From Escherichia phage Ptacy1537: a stretch of 43,020 nucleotides of DNA. The position numbers were made by a program, and so were the translations under genes. Shown piece after piece: positions 3,663 to 43,020 of the stretch. Numbering within the stretch: position 1 is the stretch's first letter; every line of letters begins with the position of its first letter. The stretch lies in the sequence record PQ863254.1; one strand, 5' to 3'. Under the pieces are notes generated by a model. The model made no database searches. It had not been told where the DNA came from and saw nothing but the letters and a program-made list of their open reading frames with translations.

Positions 3663-4927
3663 TTGCCCGTTACAGTGCACTCCTCTTCCCGACTGGTGAG
3701 TGTACTGTTGCGGCCCAATTATGGCATAAAATTGTATGACCGGAGCGACCCTCGCGACACCCCTCGCTTCCCCCATAGGCCCTCCGCTTTGCACCATCGT
3801 GGAGCATTGGGCCGCCTCCGGGCACCTGGGCCTGCACTGGCAGGGCCATCATGGGCACCTATCGTGTGAGCTCCTGTAACTCCCTGTGCGACACTGTAGG
3901 CCATCACCGCTACCTACGTATCACCGTCTGGCTAATCGCCAGCCGTAGGGCCGCATAGGGCCATCTATCAGCTACTGGTTATCATCACTACTGCCTTATC
4001 GTTTATCAGAGTCGGACAAGGTAGACTCAAGGGTTATCATAGTCGGTCTGTTTAGCAGAGTGAGTACCATCACTCAGAGATTATAGTGTAGCTGAGTCCT
4101 TACTATAGCCGGGGAGTGAACCAGTGTCAACCCTATCTTATGACTATCTCACTACTCATTGTGTCGGGAGTGTCCTATTGTGTTAGACACGCGCTTAGCG
4201 TGGCTGTGCCCTTCTCTGTGCTCTTCCTATCGTGTGACAAGGGTAAGCCCTATCTCATACCTATCGTGCACTCACATTGCTTTATAGCGGCTCTTATTGT
4301 GTGTACAGGGGCGGGCTATCTGTATCCCTGTTTGCCAGCTCATCACACTGTTAACACATACCGTCTAACCATAGGGATAACCTGAGTCATACCCTACCAG
4401 TGACCTATCATCACACCTATCAAGCTATACACTGTATCCATAGTCTAATCGCCTATGGTAAGCACATAGTGATTCTACCGTTGAATATAAACATATCACA
4501 GATAGTGAGTACCTATCTGTCCACTACTAGCTCCACTGTCTAATCGCCAGTGGCTAACGTCCTATTCGTAGTCCTCCGCTACGCTCCGTACATACTCACT
4601 TCTGATACAGATAGAGAGAATTGTAACATACGTTACTACCTACCTATCCCTACCTGTAAGGCCCATTGCTTCGTTCTGTGCTCATAGAGTATGACGAATC
4701 AAACAGCACAGAGCCTGCACTCACAGTGCCTTAAATATAATCCTATTGAATACATACACTTAGCAATTAATTCGAATTTATTTGCAAATAACGCTTGCGC
4801 TTTTAGTCGGCTATACCCTATCATTCAATCACACCGCAGCAATCAGGCGGCAAGCAGTAAGAAGTACCGCTCTTTAACAATATGGTCATAGTATAGTGTG
4901 TCCTCTCAGGAGTATAGGGGATGATAC
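3663..4927. other. Large non-coding region, probable physical genome-end / terminal region in a circularly opened assembly
   Basis: No credible ORF (only short, overlapping, hydrophobic or low-complexity ORFs). Visibly lower GC, many CCTATC-type short repeats and three CTAATCGCC hairpins. Lies between the lysis cassette and the early promoter, where T7-like genomes have their ends. Confidence 0.5.
3928..4553 (+). repeat. Three hairpins sharing a CTAATCGCC core with different complementary stems
   Basis: 3928-3942 CTGGC-TAATC-GCCAG; 4438-4458 CCATAG-TCTAATCGC-CTATGG; 4533-4553 CCACTG-TCTAATCGC-CAGTGG. Stems are perfect inverted repeats that differ in sequence while the loop core is kept. Confidence 0.6.
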
Positions 4928-8199: not shown

Positions 8200-8412
8200 A
8201 TGAAACAAGATGTGTGCTTTAACGCCGCATTGAAGGCACAGCTGCGCCGTATTGCTGGCGACTGTGACGAGGAAATGTGGTGGAATATGTCCGAGCTTGA
8301 GGACCGTGCGATTCAGGCCCGTGAGAAACTTCGCCGGATGTACTCCGAACGTGCTGCGGCCGTCGGGATGTCCCTTAATGGCTACTGCGCCCGCTTTGGA
8401 GTGAAGCTATGA
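8200..8412 (+). CDS. Early hypothetical protein
   Basis: 70-aa ORF with GGAG upstream. Stop overlaps the next start. Confidence 0.5.
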   Translation: MKQDVCFNAALKAQLRRIAGDCDEEMWWNMSELEDRAIQAREKLRRMYSERAAAVGMSLNGYCARFGVKL

Positions 8413-8708
8413 ACCAGAACGCTGTAACTGTGGCGATGATGCTGTGGGGATACGTGGAGGCTGAGGTGCACTTCGTAGACAGCCACACCCCAGATGACCC
8501 TACAACATATGAGCTGGCCGGTATGGGTGCTGTCGAGGCCTGTGAAGCGGTGCGGCTGCTGGCCATCGAGCTGTATGACCGCTGGGATAAGCCCGACACT
8601 ATGGAGTGGGTGGACTTCCTGTACGTAACCCTGCCGGATGTGGCGCACATCATTGTGCAAGACTGCATCTTAGGCACGTTCCCAACTCTCGAGGCATTTG
8701 ACATATGA
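8409..8708 (+). CDS. Early hypothetical protein
   Basis: 99-aa acidic ORF, overlap-coupled to its neighbours. Confidence 0.5.
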   Translation: MNQNAVTVAMMLWGYVEAEVHFVDSHTPDDPTTYELAGMGAVEACEAVRLLAIELYDRWDKPDTMEWVDFLYVTLPDVAHIIVQDCILGTFPTLEAFDI

Positions 8709-11562: not shown

Positions 11563-12802
11563 TACGCTATTACTCGCCGTGCTGGCCAACCGTTCCAAGT
11601 ACAAGGCGTTGGCCAGCGCCGTACCGAAGGAGACACTCGGCGCACAGACCGGGTGGCTTCTGGATGCTTACGGCAAGTTCTTTGAGCAGAACAAGAAGAA
11701 GGAGCGTGTTGACTTTGACGTGCTCGCCACTATGGTGCGCCTCAAGCTGGATGAAACGGCGGCGGGGCCTGCACTCGCGCTAGTTGAAGCGGCGCGTAAT
11801 TCGAAGGCCAGTGAGGAGCAGGAAAAGCTGGTAATCGCGGAGCTGTACGAGCGCCGACTATCCGGCCTGGCTGCGTCACTGGTTAACCGCTATGAGGATG
11901 GTGATGATGTTGATATCTCATATGAACTTTATCGCGTCGCAATGGAAACACGGAAGCTCCTGGGTACTGCTACAGATGCTCTGTTCAAGGAGCCGGACAT
12001 CCATGAAATCCTGGCTGAGCAAGCGAGCGACACGGGTCTCAAGTTCCCGCTCCTCTGCCTACAGGAGCATGTCAAAGGACTCATGCCGCCCGTTAACGTG
12101 GCCCTGTGCGCCGGTGTCGATAGTGGGAAGACCAGCTTCATTGCCAGAACGGTGGTGCATTGGGCTCCGCAGTGCGCCAAACTATTCCCAGGACGTCCGA
12201 TTCTCTGGTTATCAAATGAGGGTGTGGTGCGTGAAATCTGGCCTCGCGTCTATGCGGCTGCTTTAGATAAGAACAGTCTCAAGATGGCAGAGCTATCCCG
12301 TGATGAGCTGTATGCTCAGTACGAGGCGGCGATGGGGGGCAACCGCTCTATCCTCAAGCTGCTGGACATTCACGGCTGGAGTATGGGTCAGGTGGCCGGG
12401 CTAGTTGAAGAGCTTAACCCCTGTGTCGTCATCCTGGACATGGTGGCTAACGTTCGATGCAGTAAGCCAGTAACGGCCCGCCACGAGATGATGGAGACCA
12501 ACCTCCAGGAGTGGCGTGAGATGCAGGCGCTGCACAACTTTATTGGCTTCTCAACTATCCAGCTGTCGGCAGACGGACTGGACCAGCTTTACCCGGCGAT
12601 GCATCACCTCAAGGATACCAAGATTGGGGCACAGGGTACGCTGGACCTCCAGATTATGATGGGCCGGTTGGATGACCCTCAGCAGCAAGGCCTGCGCGGA
12701 TTCTCTACGCCGAAGAACAAGCGTAAGAAAGTCGGCAAGCCGGGCAACTTTAACGCGCAGGTGTTCTTCACACCGGATACCTGTCACTATGAGGACGCAT
12801 AA
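11552..12802 (+). CDS. DnaB-like replicative DNA helicase (T7 gp4 helicase-domain-like)
   Basis: 416 aa. Walker A-like AGVDSGKTS and a RecA-like core. Position in the replication module. Confidence 0.65.
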   Translation: MAVDTLLLAVLANRSKYKALASAVPKETLGAQTGWLLDAYGKFFEQNKKKERVDFDVLATMVRLKLDETAAGPALALVEAARNSKASEEQEKLVIAELYERRLSGLAASLVNRYEDGDDVDISYELYRVAMETRKLLGTATDALFKEPDIHEILAEQASDTGLKFPLLCLQEHVKGLMPPVNVALCAGVDSGKTSFIARTVVHWAPQCAKLFPGRPILWLSNEGVVREIWPRVYAAALDKNSLKMAELSRDELYAQYEAAMGGNRSILKLLDIHGWSMGQVAGLVEELNPCVVILDMVANVRCSKPVTARHEMMETNLQEWREMQALHNFIGFSTIQLSADGLDQLYPAMHHLKDTKIGAQGTLDLQIMMGRLDDPQQQGLRGFSTPKNKRKKVGKPGNFNAQVFFTPDTCHYEDA

Positions 12803-13002
12803 TGGCGAAGCTGGGACCTGCTGCCCAGCGTTGCAATCAGCGGATGCTGTATATGTTCACCGGGCATGATGGTGGCGGCAGCTTCTGCGATTGGCGCTTC
12901 GGCATTATAGAGGCTGACCACCCTCCAGAGTTGGCGGAGGAGTTGGACAAGCTATTCCATAAACTTGACAAGTTACTTGAACACTGTGGAGCTGAGGCAT
13001 GA
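12802..13002 (+). CDS. Small hypothetical protein
   Basis: 66-aa ORF, overlap-coupled to its neighbours. Confidence 0.4.
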   Translation: MAKLGPAAQRCNQRMLYMFTGHDGGGSFCDWRFGIIEADHPPELAEELDKLFHKLDKLLEHCGAEA

Positions 13003-13178
13003 GTAAGAAATGTACCTGTGGGCGGGGCTATGTCTCCGCGTGGGACGGAGCGTGCGGTAACTGCCGACCGCGCAAGAAACAAAAGGCACACCTGTATGCC
13101 CTATTCAATCTTCCTGAGGGTCTTACGACGGAAGAGGCCAAGCAAGTCTATACGGATTTACGGAGACGCTGCAAATGA
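12999..13178 (+). CDS. Small zinc-ribbon protein (below the ORF-track size cutoff)
   Basis: Manual translation gives 59 aa (MSKKCTCGRGYVSAWDGACGNCRPRKK...) with CxC...CxxC. ATGA overlaps at both ends. Confidence 0.4.
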   Translation: MSKKCTCGRGYVSAWDGACGNCRPRKKQKAHLYALFNLPEGLTTEEAKQVYTDLRRRCK

Positions 13179-28255: not shown

Positions 28256-29299
28256 ATGGCTGAAGTAGGCATCTTTGCATCTACTAACGTGCAGTATGAC
28301 ATCACCCGTCCTAACCAGCGCCTCGGTGCAGGCGACGAACTGGCTGACGTTACTGAACAGTTCACTGGCACCGTGGAAGGCACTATCAAGCGCCGCTCCG
28401 TGATGGCAGGCTTTATCCCGGTACGTTCCGTTCGCGGCACCTCTACCATCTCCAACCGTGGTATCTCTCGCGCTAAGCTGAGCAAAATCACCCCCGGTGT
28501 GACTCCAACCCCACAGGTTGAGCCGCACACCTCCAAAATCTTCCTGACCATCGACACCGTTATCATCGCCCGTAACGCCGAGCCAATGCTGGATGAGTTC
28601 CAGACTGACTACGACTACCAGGGCGAAGTGGCGCGTGAGCAGGGTCAGGAAATCGCGAACATGTACGACGAGACCTTCTTCATTCAGGCCGCTAAGGCTG
28701 CGAAGTCGGCAACCTCTCCGTACGAGCGTAACAAGGCTGGCGCTAACGTTGCCGGTGCAATGCCGGGCCACTCTGGCGGTCACGTTGTTAAGCTGGCTGC
28801 TGCGGCAGACGCGAAGGACCCGGCCAAGCTGTACGCTGCGATTGCAGACGTGGTTGAGAAGTTCCTGACCGTTGATGTCCGTCCGAACGAAGAAGACATG
28901 ATTGCTGTACTCCAGCCGTCCGCCTTCACTGCGCTGATGCAGGCTGAGTTCATCACCAACGGCGAGTACGTGACCTCTGCGGGTGTGACTCTGAACACCA
29001 AGTACGAGTTCGCAGCCTTCGGTATCCCGGTAATCACCTCCAACAACGCTGTATGCGGTAAAGAAATTACCGACCACCTCCTGTCGAACACCCGTAACGC
29101 CAACGCGTACGACGGCGACTTCACCAAGGTTGTGGCGCAAATCTTCTCCCCGCGTGCATTGCTGGCAGGTTCTACCATCCCGGTGACTTCCAAAATCTTC
29201 TTCGACGACATCTCGAAGCTGTGGTTCATCGACTCCTGGCTGTCCTTCGGTGTAACCGTGAACCGCCCGGAATACGCAGCTGTAATCGAGCTGCCGTAA
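28256..29299 (+). CDS. Major capsid protein (T7 gp10A-like)
   Basis: 347 aa, similar in length and sequence pattern to T7 gp10A. Flanked by the promoter consensus upstream and a hairpin terminator downstream. Confidence 0.85.
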   Translation: MAEVGIFASTNVQYDITRPNQRLGAGDELADVTEQFTGTVEGTIKRRSVMAGFIPVRSVRGTSTISNRGISRAKLSKITPGVTPTPQVEPHTSKIFLTIDTVIIARNAEPMLDEFQTDYDYQGEVAREQGQEIANMYDETFFIQAAKAAKSATSPYERNKAGANVAGAMPGHSGGHVVKLAAAADAKDPAKLYAAIADVVEKFLTVDVRPNEEDMIAVLQPSAFTALMQAEFITNGEYVTSAGVTLNTKYEFAAFGIPVITSNNAVCGKEITDHLLSNTRNANAYDGDFTKVVAQIFSPRALLAGSTIPVTSKIFFDDISKLWFIDSWLSFGVTVNRPEYAAVIELP

Positions 29300-29306
29300 T
29301 CTAACT

Positions 29307-29334
29307 GGCCTGCCCTTATGGGTGGGCCTTTTTT
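29307..29334 (+). terminator. Rho-independent-type terminator hairpin after the capsid gene (T-phi analog)
   Basis: GGCCTGCCC-TTAT-GGGTGGGCC (9-bp stem including two G-U pairs) followed by TTTTTT. Confidence 0.65.
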
Positions 29335-29349
29335 CGTTGAGACGGTGCA

Positions 29350-29934
29350 ATGATTGATGAACTGAACGTTGTAAACGCTTGTCTCGGCTCTATCGGTGAA
29401 CTTCCTGTAGTAGAGCTGACAGATGACCATCCCCTGATTGGTGGCTGACGCCCTAGTCCAGGTGACGCCCTAGTCCAGGAGAGTCATATCAAGTGGTGGT
29501 TCAACACGGATTGGGAAACCCTCCGCGTAGCTAACGACCACTTCATCTACACACCGGCAGATGCTGTGTCGGTGTACCCATACCGCAGACCGGACCTGAT
29601 TCAGAGGGGCCGCCGCCTGTGGGACCGTATTAACTCCACGTACGAGATGCAGGGGCCAGTGCTCTCCATCATTGTGCGTAATCTGCCGCTGGAGGACTTG
29701 CCTCCGCAGGTGGCCTTGCTGGTTAAGTATGCCGCCGTGCAACTATTCCAGCAGGACTATGACGCCGACGAAGCGAAGAAGGCCGACGTGGCCAGAGCAT
29801 ACCAGAAGGCGTTTATAACCTGCAACGCAGAACATGCACGACAGGTCCAGCTCAATGGGCTTGAGACCCTGTTCACCGGACGTGAGCGTGGCAGACTGCG
29901 ACCACGTCAATCCTCTGGAATCCCTGTGAGGTGA
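29350..29934 (+). CDS. Tail tubular protein A (T7 gp11-like), interrupted by an in-frame TGA at 29446-29448
   Basis: ATG at 29350 encodes MIDELNVVNACLGSIGELPVVELTDD, matching the T7 gp11 N-terminus. The frame hits TGA at codon 33 and then stays open in the same frame to 29934 (the ORF-track 29566..29934 ORF). Total 194 codons, against 196 for T7 gp11. Confidence 0.6.
29446..29479 (+). repeat. Perfect 17-bp tandem direct repeat (TGACGCCCTAGTCCAGG x2)
   Basis: Copy 1 at 29446-29462 and copy 2 at 29463-29479 are identical. Copy 1 begins with the in-frame TGA of the tail tubular A gene. Confidence 0.9.
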
Positions 29935-29959: not shown

Positions 29960-32518
29960 ATGAAGGTTCAAGGCAGTTACCAATCAGTTGTGCTTGGCGT
30001 GAGCCAGCAGGTGCCACATGAGCGCCGTAGCGGTCAGATGTGGGAGCAGGTCAACATGGTGAGTGACCCCGTTCGCGGGGTTGCTCGTCGTTGGGGTTCT
30101 GTGTTCCTGGATAGCCGCGAAGTCCGAGATACAGAGATGTCTGAATCGGACATGAAGAAGGCAGTAAACCTGTACCGGGAAGCCGAGTACACGTGCGATG
30201 GCCGCGACTTAGTTGTGCTGTACGCAAAAGGAGATGTACGACCGTACGGATTGCCACCAGTAATGGCCTACGATATCACTCAGAAGAAAACGCTGAATGT
30301 TGTTGGGGAGGGTAATCTGTACGACGCTCTCCGGGCTAACGGTGCTGCATCTCGCGCTAACGTTGGACGTTTCTTGTACGTGGCGGTAAATAACTTTGTC
30401 ACTACGTTCTCTGTGTCAGACAACATTGGTGCTCCGCTGGCGGCACGTGGAGGGGCTGTATGGGTGCGGCAGGGTAACTTCTCCCGCCCGTATGCAATGA
30501 CCGTGGTAAATACCGACGGCAGTACCCGAACATTCACGTACACAACACCGGCAGCATCCTACCCCGGTAAGCTGGATACGTCGGATATTCCAATCCCAGA
30601 CGTACCGCAGGGCGACCCTTCAAATGCGGACTTGCAGGCGTACCAGAAAGCCCTGGCTGAGTACAACAAGCTCATCAGCGACCGCACCAACGCCTACAAC
30701 TCAGCTGTAACGAGTTGGATTGGTGAGGCTACTGAGAAGATGCAGCCCGCGTACATCGCGAACCAGCTTGCACAGCAGATGACGGATGCCGGGTACACAA
30801 ACGTCTGGCCTAATGGGGCGTACGTAACGTGGAATAATAGCGCAGGTATCGCTGACGTTGTAATGCCGGAGAACAGCGACGGGACGTTCATGCGGGCTGT
30901 GGCTTATCAGGTAGACGAGGCAACTAACCTTTCACCTAAACATTGGGTTGGGCAGGTTGTTAAGGTCTCGGCCAAGAAGCAGGACCAGAAGGACGCCTAC
31001 TACATGCAGGCGTACCGCAAGTCAAGTGACACAGAAGCATTCACGGACGTTATCTGGCGTGAGACCGCAGGGCAGCGGACCAAGCCAGGAGATATCTTCC
31101 TGCACTGCTGGGCAGACCTGAACACCCTGTACATCGGGAGTAGCCCTGCTGGACTGAATGGCCTGGCACCTGACGCCGAGGCTCCGGGGTACGAGGACAG
31201 CTCGGTAGGTGATGCGTTGTCATCACCGGCACCCGGATTCTTTGGCAAGGCTATTAACTACCTGGGCGTGTTCCAGGACCGTCTGCTGATTAGCTCCGGT
31301 GCAGTGGTGTTCGCCAGCCGACCGGGCGATTATCTAAACTGGTTCCGCAAGACTGTTCTGGACGTTATCGACAACGACCCTATGGAGATGTACGCCCTCG
31401 GCTCAGAGGACGACACCATTTCCTGGGACACTACGTTTGACCGCAACCTGGTATTGTTTGGGCGTAAGAACCAATACATTATCCCAGGGCGGCAGACAAT
31501 GAGTCCTAAGTCGCCGTACATTCAGATTATGTCGAGCATCAAGGACACCGTGCTGGCTGAGCCTAAGGCCAGCGGAAGTTATGTGTTCTACGGCAAAGAT
31601 ACCTCTGTGAAAGGTAGTGTGCACCAGATTCAGATTGGTGCCGTATCCGATAGCTCCGACAGCTACGAGATTAGCCAGGCCCTGGATAACTACCTGAGCG
31701 GGCGTCCTGTACAGCTGGTGACTATACAGTCACCCAACAATGTGGTAGTGCGGACAACGGACTACAACTACGGGTTGTACGTGTATACCTACCTTCAGAA
31801 CATGAACGGCGGCGAGCGTGTCTTTGACAGCTGGTCTCGCTGGGAGTGGCCAAAGGCCCTGGGTATGTGTCTGGGTATGTGTGACGACGACGGGGCGCTG
31901 TTGGTATTCAAGCTGCGTAACATTGACGGAAAGACAGCTCTACAGGCGGAGCGCTTCAGCTTCGAGACGGAGTTGCCGGATACCGGGTACTTGGACTGCA
32001 ACCGGCCTATGGACCTGAATGTCCCGAGAGAAGCTGGGCGGGCTGCGCACTACATCGGCGGCCACGAGTATTTCTTGCTGGGTTCCCGTCTGGATAAAAT
32101 TGACAGTAATATGTCCTGGTGGGAGGAGGACCTGGCCTACCTCCGTACGGGATTCGTAACTGATGCCTATGTGGTGCCTACCGCGCCGTATATGCGGGAC
32201 AGAAACGATAACCCCATAACAACAGGCCGCCTGACCCTGGGCAGCTTTAAGGTTAACGTCGAACAGACAGCCGGGCTGTATGGCTCTGTAACGACCGCAG
32301 ACCGCACTTACGAGATGGTTGACTATGGTGGGCGCTTGCTTACCCGTAAGTCGAACCAGGTGGGTCGTGTACCGCTTGTCGATACTTCCCTCTCAGTCCC
32401 GGTGTATCGGGAGATTCGTGAGTTCCAGCTGAAGCTACAGGCACGCGACTGGCTCCCTCTGACCATTACTGGCCTTGAGTGGGTTGGTCAATGGTTCAAC
32501 CGCACTCAGAGGGTGTAA
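29960..32518 (+). CDS. Tail tubular protein B (T7 gp12-like)
   Basis: 852-aa ORF directly after tail tubular A. Size and position are consistent with gp12. Confidence 0.75.
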   Translation: MKVQGSYQSVVLGVSQQVPHERRSGQMWEQVNMVSDPVRGVARRWGSVFLDSREVRDTEMSESDMKKAVNLYREAEYTCDGRDLVVLYAKGDVRPYGLPPVMAYDITQKKTLNVVGEGNLYDALRANGAASRANVGRFLYVAVNNFVTTFSVSDNIGAPLAARGGAVWVRQGNFSRPYAMTVVNTDGSTRTFTYTTPAASYPGKLDTSDIPIPDVPQGDPSNADLQAYQKALAEYNKLISDRTNAYNSAVTSWIGEATEKMQPAYIANQLAQQMTDAGYTNVWPNGAYVTWNNSAGIADVVMPENSDGTFMRAVAYQVDEATNLSPKHWVGQVVKVSAKKQDQKDAYYMQAYRKSSDTEAFTDVIWRETAGQRTKPGDIFLHCWADLNTLYIGSSPAGLNGLAPDAEAPGYEDSSVGDALSSPAPGFFGKAINYLGVFQDRLLISSGAVVFASRPGDYLNWFRKTVLDVIDNDPMEMYALGSEDDTISWDTTFDRNLVLFGRKNQYIIPGRQTMSPKSPYIQIMSSIKDTVLAEPKASGSYVFYGKDTSVKGSVHQIQIGAVSDSSDSYEISQALDNYLSGRPVQLVTIQSPNNVVVRTTDYNYGLYVYTYLQNMNGGERVFDSWSRWEWPKALGMCLGMCDDDGALLVFKLRNIDGKTALQAERFSFETELPDTGYLDCNRPMDLNVPREAGRAAHYIGGHEYFLLGSRLDKIDSNMSWWEEDLAYLRTGFVTDAYVVPTAPYMRDRNDNPITTGRLTLGSFKVNVEQTAGLYGSVTTADRTYEMVDYGGRLLTRKSNQVGRVPLVDTSLSVPVYREIREFQLKLQARDWLPLTITGLEWVGQWFNRTQRV

Positions 32519-39424: not shown

Positions 39425-41680
39425 ATGGACAAGTCTACCCTTGAATGGATGACGTCGGATTCTACAGAACCAGATTACCTTACTATGGTTACGTACACTG
39501 CCGACGGCACTACGGACCAATACGAGTTTAACTTCCCAGGTGGCTACCTGAACAAGGCGGACATTAAAGCGTACATGTTCGACCCAGCAGGCGTTGTCCG
39601 TACGGACCTTACTGTAGCGTTCATTGCTGACAACATTGTTAAGCTGACCCCGGAACAGGCGGCCGGTAACTTAGTCACCATCTACCGCGACACTCCAAAA
39701 GAGCTGCCGCTGGTTAGCTTTACCGACGGCGCTATGATTGAGGCTCGCAACCTTGACCGTAACGCAAAGCAGTGTATCTTCGCCGTCGCTGAAATCCTGG
39801 ACAAGTACAATATCGTGTACAGCCAGGTAGAGCTGGCGGAGCGATATGCAACTATTGCCCGAGACGCGGCGGATACCGCAACAACCCAGGCCGAGTTCGT
39901 CGCCTACATTTACGAGCGGTTTAAGATTACCGACGAGATGATGGCGGAGATTAACCGTGCACGTGATGACGCGCAGTTTGCAGCAGGCCGGTCCGAGCAG
40001 GCCCAAGACGCCGCTGAGCGTGCGCGTGATGCAACGGAAGCTCTGGCCACAAGTGCTGGAATCTTCCAGTCTATTGCAGCGGGCCTTGCAGGCACCTCCA
40101 CCGGCCAATACTTCACGGTAGGGCAGGGTGTGGATTCCGAGACGGCTGCCATCACGTACCTGAACGACAACGGTACGGCTGTGCCTGTATTCAAGACGGC
40201 GGGTACTCAGGCGTATGTAAACCTGAATAAGAGGTTTATGGACGTATTCCTGGAAGGCACCTACGGTAACGCACTCGCCGGTTTCGTGGATGACGAGGAC
40301 AACTCGCCGCTGTTTATCGACGACAAGGGCGAGGTCGTAATCAATGACATCAACTTCCTGAAACAGGTGCAGGACATCATTAACGAATTGGTAGCAATTC
40401 GTAACGTGTTCATCTCTGAATCAGACAGCTACATCCAGAAGGGTGGATTCATGGATGATGAAGGCAAGCTGCCTATCTACTTCGACGAGAAGGGTGATGT
40501 GTGGCTGGGAGATGGCCCGGTTAACCTGACTCAGTTCGTAAAAGAGGGCGACCCCGTTCTGGCTAACCGCGTGCTGGCTTTAGAAACTCAGTATGCACGC
40601 CTGAATGATAAGTTCTTCGAGGCGGATTCAGACTACAGCCAGGTAGCAGGCTTCGTTGATGATGAAGGCAAGCTGCCCCTGTATGTGGACAAGTTTGGTG
40701 ATGTTTGGATTGGCGCAGGTCCGGTTAACCTTAGCGAGTTCGTTAAGAGCGGCGGCGGCATTCCTTCTGAAGAGTTCACTGCATTGAAGGCGCAGGTGGC
40801 CAACCACGAGCGTGCCATCTATGGAACGGGCAACATCGTCTGCGAAGGCGATTCCCTGACTGCCGGTGCCGGTGCGGTATCCCGTACTGGTTATGTAGAG
40901 CGCCTTCGTGCCCGCCTACAGTCCCAGGGCATTGTGGTGACTAAGCGTGCAGTCGGAGGCACGGGCTCTGCATCCATCGCAACCCGACAGGGTGGTTATG
41001 TTAACCTGCTGACGCTGGAGAATAACAGCATCCCAGCTGCCCGCGTCCCGGTTAATATCCTGTCCAGTACGCAAACACCAATCACCAACCAAGGCGGTGG
41101 CCCTATCAAGGGTACTATAATGGGTATTCCTGGTGTAGTTGCTGCTACCTTCTCGGGAACTGAGCGTACCTCCTACACCTTCACTCGCGACGTGGCAGGC
41201 ACCGTGGCCACCTACGTGGACCCGGAGACCCCGTTCATCAAACAGCGGGATGGTATGGAGGGCGACATCGCTATCCTGTGGCCGGGCCGCAACGACACAT
41301 GGCGCACCGATATGGGTGACGAGGTAATGAATGCGGTTGACGCGATGGTGGCTCACCTGGTATCCCAGCGTAAGCAGTTCGTCGTAATGTCCGTGCTCAA
41401 CGGTGAGTATGTTAACGAGTACAAAGGCGGGCCAGTATACGACCGCATCCTGGGCTATAACAACCGCCTCAAGTATAAGTACCCGGAGCAGTATTGCGAG
41501 ATTCGTAATGTCCTGGTACGTGCATACGACCCAAGCAAACCGCAGGACGTGCTAGACTTCCAGCATGATATCCCACCAGCCAGCCTGCGTGCGGACGGCA
41601 TTCACCTGCTGGACCCTGGCTACGACATCGTTGAAGAGACTGTGTATACCCATCTCAAGAACAGAGGATTAGTTAAATAA
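39425..41680 (+). CDS. Tail fibre protein: T7 gp17-like N-terminal adaptor domain, three internal repeats, C-terminal SGNH/GDSL hydrolase domain
   Basis: N-terminus (LVSFTDGAMIEARNLD) parallels T7 gp17 (LVDFTDGSILRAYDLN). Three 68-aa repeats (GF(V/M)DDEGKLP...GDVW(I/L)G.GPVNL..FVK). C-terminal IVCEGDSLTAGAG ... DGIHL matches the SGNH esterase catalytic Ser block and Asp-x-x-His block. Confidence 0.75.
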   Translation: MDKSTLEWMTSDSTEPDYLTMVTYTADGTTDQYEFNFPGGYLNKADIKAYMFDPAGVVRTDLTVAFIADNIVKLTPEQAAGNLVTIYRDTPKELPLVSFTDGAMIEARNLDRNAKQCIFAVAEILDKYNIVYSQVELAERYATIARDAADTATTQAEFVAYIYERFKITDEMMAEINRARDDAQFAAGRSEQAQDAAERARDATEALATSAGIFQSIAAGLAGTSTGQYFTVGQGVDSETAAITYLNDNGTAVPVFKTAGTQAYVNLNKRFMDVFLEGTYGNALAGFVDDEDNSPLFIDDKGEVVINDINFLKQVQDIINELVAIRNVFISESDSYIQKGGFMDDEGKLPIYFDEKGDVWLGDGPVNLTQFVKEGDPVLANRVLALETQYARLNDKFFEADSDYSQVAGFVDDEGKLPLYVDKFGDVWIGAGPVNLSEFVKSGGGIPSEEFTALKAQVANHERAIYGTGNIVCEGDSLTAGAGAVSRTGYVERLRARLQSQGIVVTKRAVGGTGSASIATRQGGYVNLLTLENNSIPAARVPVNILSSTQTPITNQGGGPIKGTIMGIPGVVAATFSGTERTSYTFTRDVAGTVATYVDPETPFIKQRDGMEGDIAILWPGRNDTWRTDMGDEVMNAVDAMVAHLVSQRKQFVVMSVLNGEYVNEYKGGPVYDRILGYNNRLKYKYPEQYCEIRNVLVRAYDPSKPQDVLDFQHDIPPASLRADGIHLLDPGYDIVEETVYTHLKNRGLVK

Positions 41681-42453
41681 TGGGCAATTTCATCAAGATT
41701 GGCACCACCCTGACCAACCCGAACATCACCAAGCTGACTCGGGATTCACTCATTGATGCCAACACCGTATTTATTGCGGACCTGAGCCGCAAGGCATCCA
41801 ACCCGGCGCAGGTGGACCTGTCCAACGGCAATCTTCTGTATAACCTGACTAACGGTGGCCTAAACGCCACCACCATCACGGGCACTAAGATTCCGTTCTC
41901 TGCGGCGGGTAAATATCTCACCAAAGAGGTTGGCGATATCTCGTCCCGTATCCAGCTGCCGGACACCTGTAAGGTGCTCGCTACCGACAACAGCTTCCAG
42001 TTTACCCTGTGGTTTACTGAGCTGGCCGGACAGGATACTACGGGCTCTCAGGGTCTGGCAGGATACGCATCAAACTCCAGCAACCAGATGGCCTTCGCGT
42101 TCTACTGGTTCGATGGCCAGTATTTCCTGGGTTGTGCGGGGAACCGGCACCCAATCGCAACACCTGCTGTAGGCGCAGTAAGCCAGTTGACGGTGGCCTG
42201 TGACCGTAATCTGGGAATCCGTAAGTATTACTACAACGGGGCCCTAGTGCGTTCTGAGACCAATCAGGTTATCAATGATATGCCTATTCCGGTAGCTGGT
42301 TCTAACCCGTGGCTGTTCTACCTGGGCGGTGGCTTCAACTCCCGCCGCAACGTTAAGCTGCACCGTGTATGGTTGGATGTAAACGGCCCCGGCGATAACT
42401 TTGACGCCAAAGTAGTTCGCGACTGGAACGAGAACAAACTTAAATTCGTATAA
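41680..42453 (+). CDS. Hypothetical tail-associated protein (possible lectin-like or receptor-binding accessory protein)
   Basis: 257-aa ORF, TAATG-coupled to the tail fibre gene. Composition suggests a beta-rich fold. No firm domain call. Confidence 0.5.
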   Translation: MGNFIKIGTTLTNPNITKLTRDSLIDANTVFIADLSRKASNPAQVDLSNGNLLYNLTNGGLNATTITGTKIPFSAAGKYLTKEVGDISSRIQLPDTCKVLATDNSFQFTLWFTELAGQDTTGSQGLAGYASNSSNQMAFAFYWFDGQYFLGCAGNRHPIATPAVGAVSQLTVACDRNLGIRKYYYNGALVRSETNQVINDMPIPVAGSNPWLFYLGGGFNSRRNVKLHRVWLDVNGPGDNFDAKVVRDWNENKLKFV

Positions 42454-42459
42454 GGACCT

Positions 42460-42648
42460 GTGATGTGGCTGATTGATGACCTCCTGGACCGGGCGGGGCC
42501 CCTTCCGGGGGTCACGGTATCCGGTGTTACTCTGTTAGGGCTTAACCTACAGACTACGGTGTATGTTCTTACTATCGTATACCTGGTACTGCAAATTGGC
42601 CGCTTTATTTGGAAGTGGCTTGACGAATGGAGAGGTAAAGATGACTGA
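42460..42648 (+). CDS. Putative holin (pinholin candidate)
   Basis: 62 aa. Hydrophobic segment VTLLGLNLQTTVYVLTIVYLVLQIGRFIW followed by a charged C-terminus. Lies just before small terminase, as T7 gp17.5 does. Confidence 0.5.
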   Translation: MMWLIDDLLDRAGPLPGVTVSGVTLLGLNLQTTVYVLTIVYLVLQIGRFIWKWLDEWRGKDD

Positions 42649-43020
42649 CTTCGAAGACGACCTGCCTGAGAAGTCCCCGGACGAGCTCGACAAGATTGCT
42701 GAACAGGAGAAGAAGGATGCTGAGTTCCTCGAAAGACTGTCCAACATGTCTAACGAAGAGTTAGCCAAGCTCCTCCTGAATAATTCCCTGAAGCAGCTCC
42801 TGGTTACTATAAACAAGGGCTGGGCCACTGCGTCGGATATAAACACCGCCCGACAGTTTCTCAAGGACAACAACATCGGCATTGTACCTACCCGCAGTAA
42901 TGCTGCTGGGGCCCTCCAGAAGAAGCTCAAAGAACGTGCAGATGCTGCAAAGGACGGGGCACACCATAACGTTGCTGACCTCGACAACGTGGGTATCGAT
43001 GACTTTATTCAGAGGCACTA
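42641..43020 (+). CDS. Terminase small subunit (T7 gp18-like), 3'-truncated at the window end
   Basis: ATG at 42641 opens a frame with no stop before the window end. The pattern resembles the remembered T7 gp18. Probably continues across the circular junction towards position 1. Confidence 0.5.
   Translation, partial: MTDFEDDLPEKSPDELDKIAEQEKKDAEFLERLSNMSNEELAKLLLNNSLKQLLVTINKGWATASDINTARQFLKDNNIGIVPTRSNAAGALQKKLKERADAAKDGAHHNVADLDNVGIDDFIQRH

Follow-up and report, generated by a model that had tools for sequence, protein, structure and literature searches.

The gp11 locus and its genomic context

The window analyzed here, a single stretch of 43,020 bp, is the complete genome of a T7-like podovirus (Autographiviridae, Melnykvirinae). 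The gene under study, a gp11-like tail tubular protein A (tail adaptor) gene, occupies positions 29350 to 29934 on the plus strand, between the capsid gene (28256 to 29299) and the gp12/nozzle gene (29960 to 32518). Its 585 nt begin with an ATG at 29350, which aligns with the annotated start in six GenBank orthologues, and end with a stop codon at 29932 to 29934. The frame is open throughout except for one TGA at 29446 to 29448, which disrupts the gene at codon 33. The conceptual product matches the Pfam family Tube (PF17212) with 64.1 bits (cutoff, 22.3), residues 5 to 165 covering profile positions 1 to 166 of 169 continuously across the stop, and it also matches the tail protein family PHROG 446 (E=2e-45). 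In addition, an intact gp11 orthologue matches the solved podovirus adaptors 8vb4, 9s5j, 5mu4, and 7box, the last of which is T7 gp11; two of these entries contain 12 adaptor chains. In the relatives, a Phage_nozzle gene (PF25675) lies directly 3' of gp11. Domain matches and gene position thus bear out a first-pass annotation of this DNA, which had called the gene a gp11-like tail tubular protein A. While the window shares with T7 gp11 and the podovirus tail adaptors both the whole-length domain match and the slot between the capsid and gp12/nozzle genes, it differs from them in one respect: every relative examined is intact, whereas the window's reading frame is broken at codon 33 and its codons 31 to 38 are nonhomologous.

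The gap between the capsid gene and gp11 holds a strong rho-independent terminator (29307 to 29338, plus strand), found by a scan as a 9-bp stem with seven GC pairs followed by a T-run. This terminator, which the annotation of phage GP-4 also lists, probably determines the ratio of capsid to tail protein expression.

The nearest deposited relatives of the window are the Klebsiella phages 6937, K59PH2, KYP, GP-4, Kpn1-P3, and Kvc-Y10, at ~84 to 89% nucleotide identity, with the best relatives ~88% identical. An exact look-up of the window's own proteins in a large protein collection found none of them present. Position 1 of the window is exactly the ATG of terL, and the stop codon of the small-terminase gene (42641 to 43018) wraps onto position 1 (ATGA overlap; 43018 to 43020). 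Because the sequence starts at the terL ATG and the stop of the upstream gene wraps round its end, the window is a processed assembly, circularized and rotated, whose making involved joins and polishing. It shows no terminal repeat; its relative GP-4 was deposited as a linear genome with 584-bp direct terminal repeats.

Structure of the lesion

The TGA, whose next base is C, opens a 17-mer, TGACGCCCTAGTCCAGG, that is present in two perfect tandem copies (29446 to 29462 and 29463 to 29479, plus strand). Both the single in-frame stop and the perfect repeat starting at it had been described in the first-pass annotation and were confirmed. The comparison with orthologous gp11 genes, which that annotation had proposed and which we ran, revealed that the two copies differ in origin. 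Copy 2 is native: its register and frame agree with those of T GAC GCT YTA GTC CAG G in 13 of 13 relatives, and it encodes …A-D-A-L-V-Q-E…. Copy 1 is the intruder: it is identical to copy 2 and has no counterpart in the relatives. The overwritten patch consists of copy 1 and the 6 nt before it, that is, 23 nt on the plus strand (29440 to 29462; GGTGGCTGACGCCCTAGTCCAGG), and it encodes GG*RPSPG where the relatives encode AAARSRLA. The conserved sequence displaced by it is GCAGCAGCACGTAGTCGGTTGGC, and all 13 relatives follow the pattern GCn-nCn-GCn-CGn-AGT-CGG-TTG-GC at this site. Read through the whole region, the relatives' DNA is …CTG ATT GCA GCA GCA CGT AGT CGG TTG GCT GAC GCT TTA GTC CAG GAG… (P-L-I-A-A-A-R-S-R-L-A-D-A-L-V-Q-E), and that of the window is …CTG ATT GGT GGC TGA CGC CCT AGT CCA GGT GAC GCC CTA GTC CAG GAG….

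The gene is 585 nt long both in the window and in 12 orthologues (from six GenBank phages and six Logan contigs), and the alignment of the window's gp11 DNA with that of the relatives has no gaps. With equal length, a conserved AAARSRLA, and no stop in the orthologues, the comparison shows that the 17-bp repeat adds no length and that the event is a length-neutral overwrite rather than an insertion, a point hidden from any reading made without relatives. A plain duplication artifact had already been doubted in the first-pass annotation, on the grounds that deleting one copy leaves the TGA in place and shifts the frame. This argument holds, and the doubt is borne out by the unchanged gene length, which also rules out a plain 17-bp insertion or duplication. 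Similarly, deleting one copy together with a 1-nt indel yields …PLI(G/V)ADALVQ…, but the gene would then be 18 nt shorter than in all relatives, so this arrangement is not ancestral.

In a sliding comparison, shifting the patch by +17 nt brings 22 of its 23 positions into agreement with the reconstructed ancestral sequence, and no other place in the genome, on either strand, agrees in more than 17 of 23. The patch also includes a CC (29452 to 29453) that is private to the window, the relatives having TT or TC. Because copy 1 carries this private CC, the donor is the downstream sequence of the window itself rather than that of a contaminating relative. The three bases of the TGA are distributed over two codons in their native position (GC[T GA]C, encoding Ala-Asp), and the in-frame TGA is a by-product of a copied block that lies out of its native frame. 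The same outcome would follow from losing 17 nt and gaining a 17-nt tandem copy at the neighboring position, plus one extra substitution (29441 G). At the left junction, microhomology is limited to at most "TG," the joint between copy 1 and copy 2 has none, and the interval of the donor shares 6 nt with that of the target.

The lesion appears private to the window and very recent

Perfect 17-nt tandems are expected by chance about 2.5e-6 times in 43 kb. The gp11 17-mer is the window's longest close-range exact repeat; such repeats reach no more than 14 nt in four relatives and no more than 13 nt in shuffled sequence. In the alignment with the 13 relatives, which include one more divergent metagenome contig (L013), the window agrees with them in 206 to 215 of 225 flanking positions but in only 7 to 8 of the 23 positions of the patch. 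At 6% divergence, the probability of at least 15 mismatches in 23 positions is 1.5e-13. Natural lineage divergence at the patch is ruled out by this figure (P ~1e-13 given the flank identity), and the divergent L013 still has the motif.

Neither the stop nor the repeat occurs at the gp11 site in any of the 13 relatives. A search of a database of 5.8 billion proteins did not find the lesion, and the closest proteins that it returned read AAARSRLA at the site, and an IMG/VR protein scan for the lesion or for closer relatives found nothing. At the DNA level, the junction sequence was sought in IMG/VR as well as in the JGI metagenomes and the GTDB genomes, and no copy came to light; the only relative returned by the JGI metagenome and GTDB scans was L013. 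Within the window, gp11 is the sole gene with a stop or frame break among the 43 genes shared with phage 6937. Outside codons 31 to 38, its dN/dS is 0.034 to 0.054 and its amino acid identity to the relatives is 96 to 97%, a combination of low dN/dS and high identity that reveals strong purifying selection and hence a gene functional until essentially now. Together, these comparisons mark the lesion as what looks like a private, very recent, one-off event.

Several other explanations could be set aside. A mosaic or recombination breakpoint at the site is not indicated, as identity declines gradually downstream without a sharp step. Contamination or a chimera with a related phage is ruled out by the window-private CC in the patch, and generally poor sequence quality is ruled out by the 42 other genes, all of which are intact.

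Two further tandems were observed in the window. Within gp12 (29960 to 32518), positions 31859 to 31882 hold two perfect copies of the 12-nt unit CTGGGTATGTGT, encoding LGMC-LGMC, where five relatives have an imperfect LGMC-(V/I)GMC with 3 to 5 nt differences in the second unit. This tandem is length-neutral, in frame, and harmless, and it has the look of a local homogenization akin to the gp11 patch but may be a coincidence. As a sign of a recurrent process in the window genome we rejected it: the gp12 tandem is similar, but repeats of 12 to 14 nt are normal in the relatives. An imperfect 17-nt tandem (two copies of ATCAGCTACTGCTTATC, 83% match) lies at 3967 to 4000, in a stretch of low conservation that follows the lysis genes and near the relatives' terminal repeat and early promoter sites.

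Predicted effect on the tail adaptor

The patch falls in the first half of a helix predicted by AlphaFold2 at residues 30 to 45 (pLDDT about 90). In a 22-member family alignment reaching down to ~35% identity, conservation is 90% or more at both A31 and A33; the patch loses both of these near-invariant alanines and puts two prolines and three glycines into the predicted helix. All seven sense codons around the stop are nonhomologous to those of the relatives, and the uninterrupted reading frame for the conserved N-terminal helices is absent from the window's gp11 owing to the TGA at codon 33. Since the codons around the stop are scrambled as well, an amino acid inserted at the UGA would not restore the protein. 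As written, then, this gp11 is a null allele, and the virion protein that it should encode is essential.

Origin of the lesion

Among the options listed in the first-pass annotation, a local sequencing error is the one that we favor; its suppressor-dependent opal mutation, UGA-C readthrough, and two-piece gene are unsupported. More precisely, we infer that the lesion arose in the making of the record, through an assembly, consensus, or editing error, and that it is absent from the viable phage, an origin that we consider probable, if with considerable reserve. A genome that lacks its dodecameric tail adaptor cannot be the prevailing one in a lysate. This reading is favored because such an adaptor-less genome could not be the majority genotype and because the window is a processed circular assembly. 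A block of ~21 to 23 nt (G-TGGC plus the 17-mer TGACGCCCTAGTCCAGG), native to 29457 to 29479, is present a second time 17 nt upstream, where it overwrites codons 31 to 38. A single register-shift error could have made both the 17-nt loss and the 17-nt gain: a false 17-nt duplication would have formed at a join or during local reassembly in the rotated circular assembly, and polishing or consensus calling would then have added a misplaced compensating deletion of 17 nt. That loss and gain are of the same size (17=17) would suggest one register error rather than two independent mutations.

With assembly and polishing artifacts known from tandem duplications, the window has in common a perfect, short, private tandem, a clean rotated circular assembly, and a broken essential gene. 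It departs from the classic untrimmed overlap, which adds one unit, in that gp11 is unchanged in length and a stretch of the same 17-nt size is lacking immediately upstream, so that a second, compensating error would be required. An untrimmed circularization overlap alone is ruled out on the same grounds, since it predicts an extra 17 nt and the length is unchanged. Since the assembly is otherwise clean, the artifact would need to have occurred once and in isolation, and we know of no standard assembler error that gives a length-neutral, 17-nt shifted copy with an extra substitution.

Alternatively, the lesion might be a genuine complex mutation in the sequenced DNA, produced during replication or recombination either by a one-step direct copy-over or by a 17-nt deletion combined with a 17-nt tandem duplication. 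The genome carrying it would be defective or barely viable, as in a subpopulation, a metagenomic or low-coverage template, or a very recent sweep rescued by coinfection. We regard this as possible but doubtful. The adjacent donor, which is the window's own sequence down to the private CC, is what local slippage or template switching would give, and the remaining assembly appears accurate. T7-like phages are, moreover, prone to recombination between short repeats, a tendency that would favor such an event. The 12-nt unit in gp12, a perfect tandem in the window and an imperfect one in five relatives, could likewise hint at local homogenization, although it falls within the normal repeat range of the relatives. 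Weighing against a genuine mutation, a null allele in a gene with a dN/dS of ~0.04 and no earlier decay could not be the majority genotype of a propagated phage. The junctions of the lesion offer no useful microhomology, the 6-nt overlap between donor and target is awkward for a simple intramolecular event, and hairpin-driven slippage is rejected because no inverted repeat or hairpin is present in the ancestral DNA (z=+0.81).

A published mutational model of comparable appearance is short-range template switching, described in the four-point model of Löytynoja and Goldman as the copying of a fragment in reverse-complement orientation (PMC5453318). The gp11 patch shares with template-switch clusters, a class associated with Ripley, the dense substitutions, the little or no change in length, and the explanation by a nearby fragment. 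However, the model needs an inverted copy (PMC5453318), whereas the gp11 patch is a direct one. An inverted template switch is ruled out by the same-strand donor at +17 (22/23) and by the lack of any reverse-strand match of at least 17/23. It is unlikely that the lesion represents a genuine, direct-orientation, length-neutral copy-over, which would belong to a class outside the published inverted template-switch models; if the lesion were real after all, it would be an example of a direct-orientation, length-neutral templated mutation. Causes that we do not name share the small remainder of the probability.

Readthrough, bypassing, and a split gene are unsupported

An in-frame stop codon inside a perfect repeat can mimic a recoding site until orthologues expose the scrambled flanking codons and the unchanged length. 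If the lesion were functional, the UGA-C might be read through, by near-cognate Trp-tRNA or in a suppressor host, to an extent that supplies enough full-length adaptor. The first-pass annotation had raised this possibility both as an opal mutation in a phage grown on a suppressor host and as programmed readthrough, and we consider it highly improbable. The leaky context that it invoked is indeed present, with UGA followed by C at codon 33, the frame is restored after the patch, and 12 adaptor copies suffice per virion. UGA-C is said to be the weakest termination context in E. coli, reportedly from work by Poole, Brown, and Tate in 1995; a literature search on the leakiness of UGA-C in E. coli returned eukaryotic work only, the UGA-C paper found being concerned with mammalian cells. 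Against readthrough, the stop is found in 0 of 13 relatives, the surrounding codons are scrambled so that the product would carry GGxRPSPG for AAARSRLA in a conserved helix, and the local RNA fold is no better than that of shuffles (z=-0.41). Single-base revertants would, moreover, outcompete such a phage at once.

Programmed UGA readthrough of the kind known from the Qβ A1 protein shares with the window an in-frame UGA, a virion-protein gene, and the UGA-C context. In contrast to Qβ-type readthrough and to reassignment in phages, the stop of the window is unconserved and sits among scrambled codons, and a suppressor tRNA is lacking. No tRNA genes were found in the window. Of 42 conserved genes, 15 end in TGA, and in three of these the TGA is followed by C. 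Reassignment of TGA or a phage-encoded suppressor is excluded by these observations together with the presence of only one in-frame stop in 43 genes. Rescue by a single frameshift fails as well, since stops interrupt both alternatives: the +1 frame at 29434 and 29471, the +2 frame at 29454 and 29463. The argument against frameshifting made in the first-pass annotation, that the other two frames also contain stops across the repeat, is thereby upheld.

A ribosome hop from GGC (29443 to 29445) to GGU (29461 to 29463), skipping 15 nt in frame to give …PLIGG-DALVQ…, is scarcely credible. The layout, with a Gly codon right before the stop and a synonymous but nonidentical Gly codon 18 nt downstream in frame, superficially resembles T4 gene 60 with its take-off and landing codons, but the other elements of gene 60 bypassing are absent: there is no significant take-off stem-loop, and the nascent peptide, which is acidic, does not resemble the gene 60 signal. 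The GGC, the GGU, and the stop follow automatically from the copied block, no relative has the arrangement, and six residues of a conserved helix would be missing from the product.

Equally hard to credit is a two-piece gene, another option of the first-pass annotation, in which a 32-amino-acid N-terminal peptide and a separately initiated C-terminal protein would be made. An AGGAG (29477 to 29481) does lie 6 nt upstream of an in-frame ATC (29488), and a fragment initiated at GTG 29566, the first canonical start in frame, is still recognized as Tube. However, the AGGAG belongs to conserved Gln-Glu-Ser codons and occurs in all relatives, ATC is a very poor start codon, and the Tube domain runs continuously across the stop. 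A restart at GTG 29566 would keep profile positions 80 to 166 of 169 but drop the invariant W49, W50, N52, P69, and D71. The informative homologues are all single chains of 194 to 211 amino acids, as are the solved adaptors.

Even taken together, readthrough, bypassing, and a split gene are improbable. Narrower still is the chance that the lesion is real and fixed and that the phage survives by UGA-C readthrough or a hop despite a Pro- and Gly-rich start to helix 30 to 45, which we judge to be very slight. Programmed readthrough, reassignment, frameshifting, bypassing, and a two-piece gene are all unsupported, and the TGA in gp11 represents no new biological mechanism. Only in the unlikely case that the lesion is real and the phage viable would an essential structural gene be expressed through a leaky UGA. 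In practical terms, the genome as written encodes no functional tail adaptor, and anyone transferring its annotation, compiling a phage-therapy dossier, or rebooting the phage synthetically should first recheck the record.

Other differences between the window and its relatives

Two short stretches of the window have no counterpart in phage 6937. One lies in the gap between the helicase and ligase genes (12802 to 13178) and contains small open reading frames of 66 and 59 amino acids; the other, at about 8410 to 8705, follows the gene at 8200 to 8409. At the places equivalent to both, extra small hypothetical genes are annotated in K59PH2.

The tail fiber/spike gene (39425 to 41680) encodes a 751-amino-acid protein of which only the N-terminal ~263 residues are shared with phage 6937 (67% identity), the remainder having no match to the fiber of 6937. 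For the last gene of 6937 (42396 to 43166), no match was found in the window, where the region noted is 41680 to 42453. This pattern suggests that the fiber module, a receptor-binding or depolymerase module, has been swapped and that the capsule or host specificity of the phage differs from that of its Klebsiella relatives.
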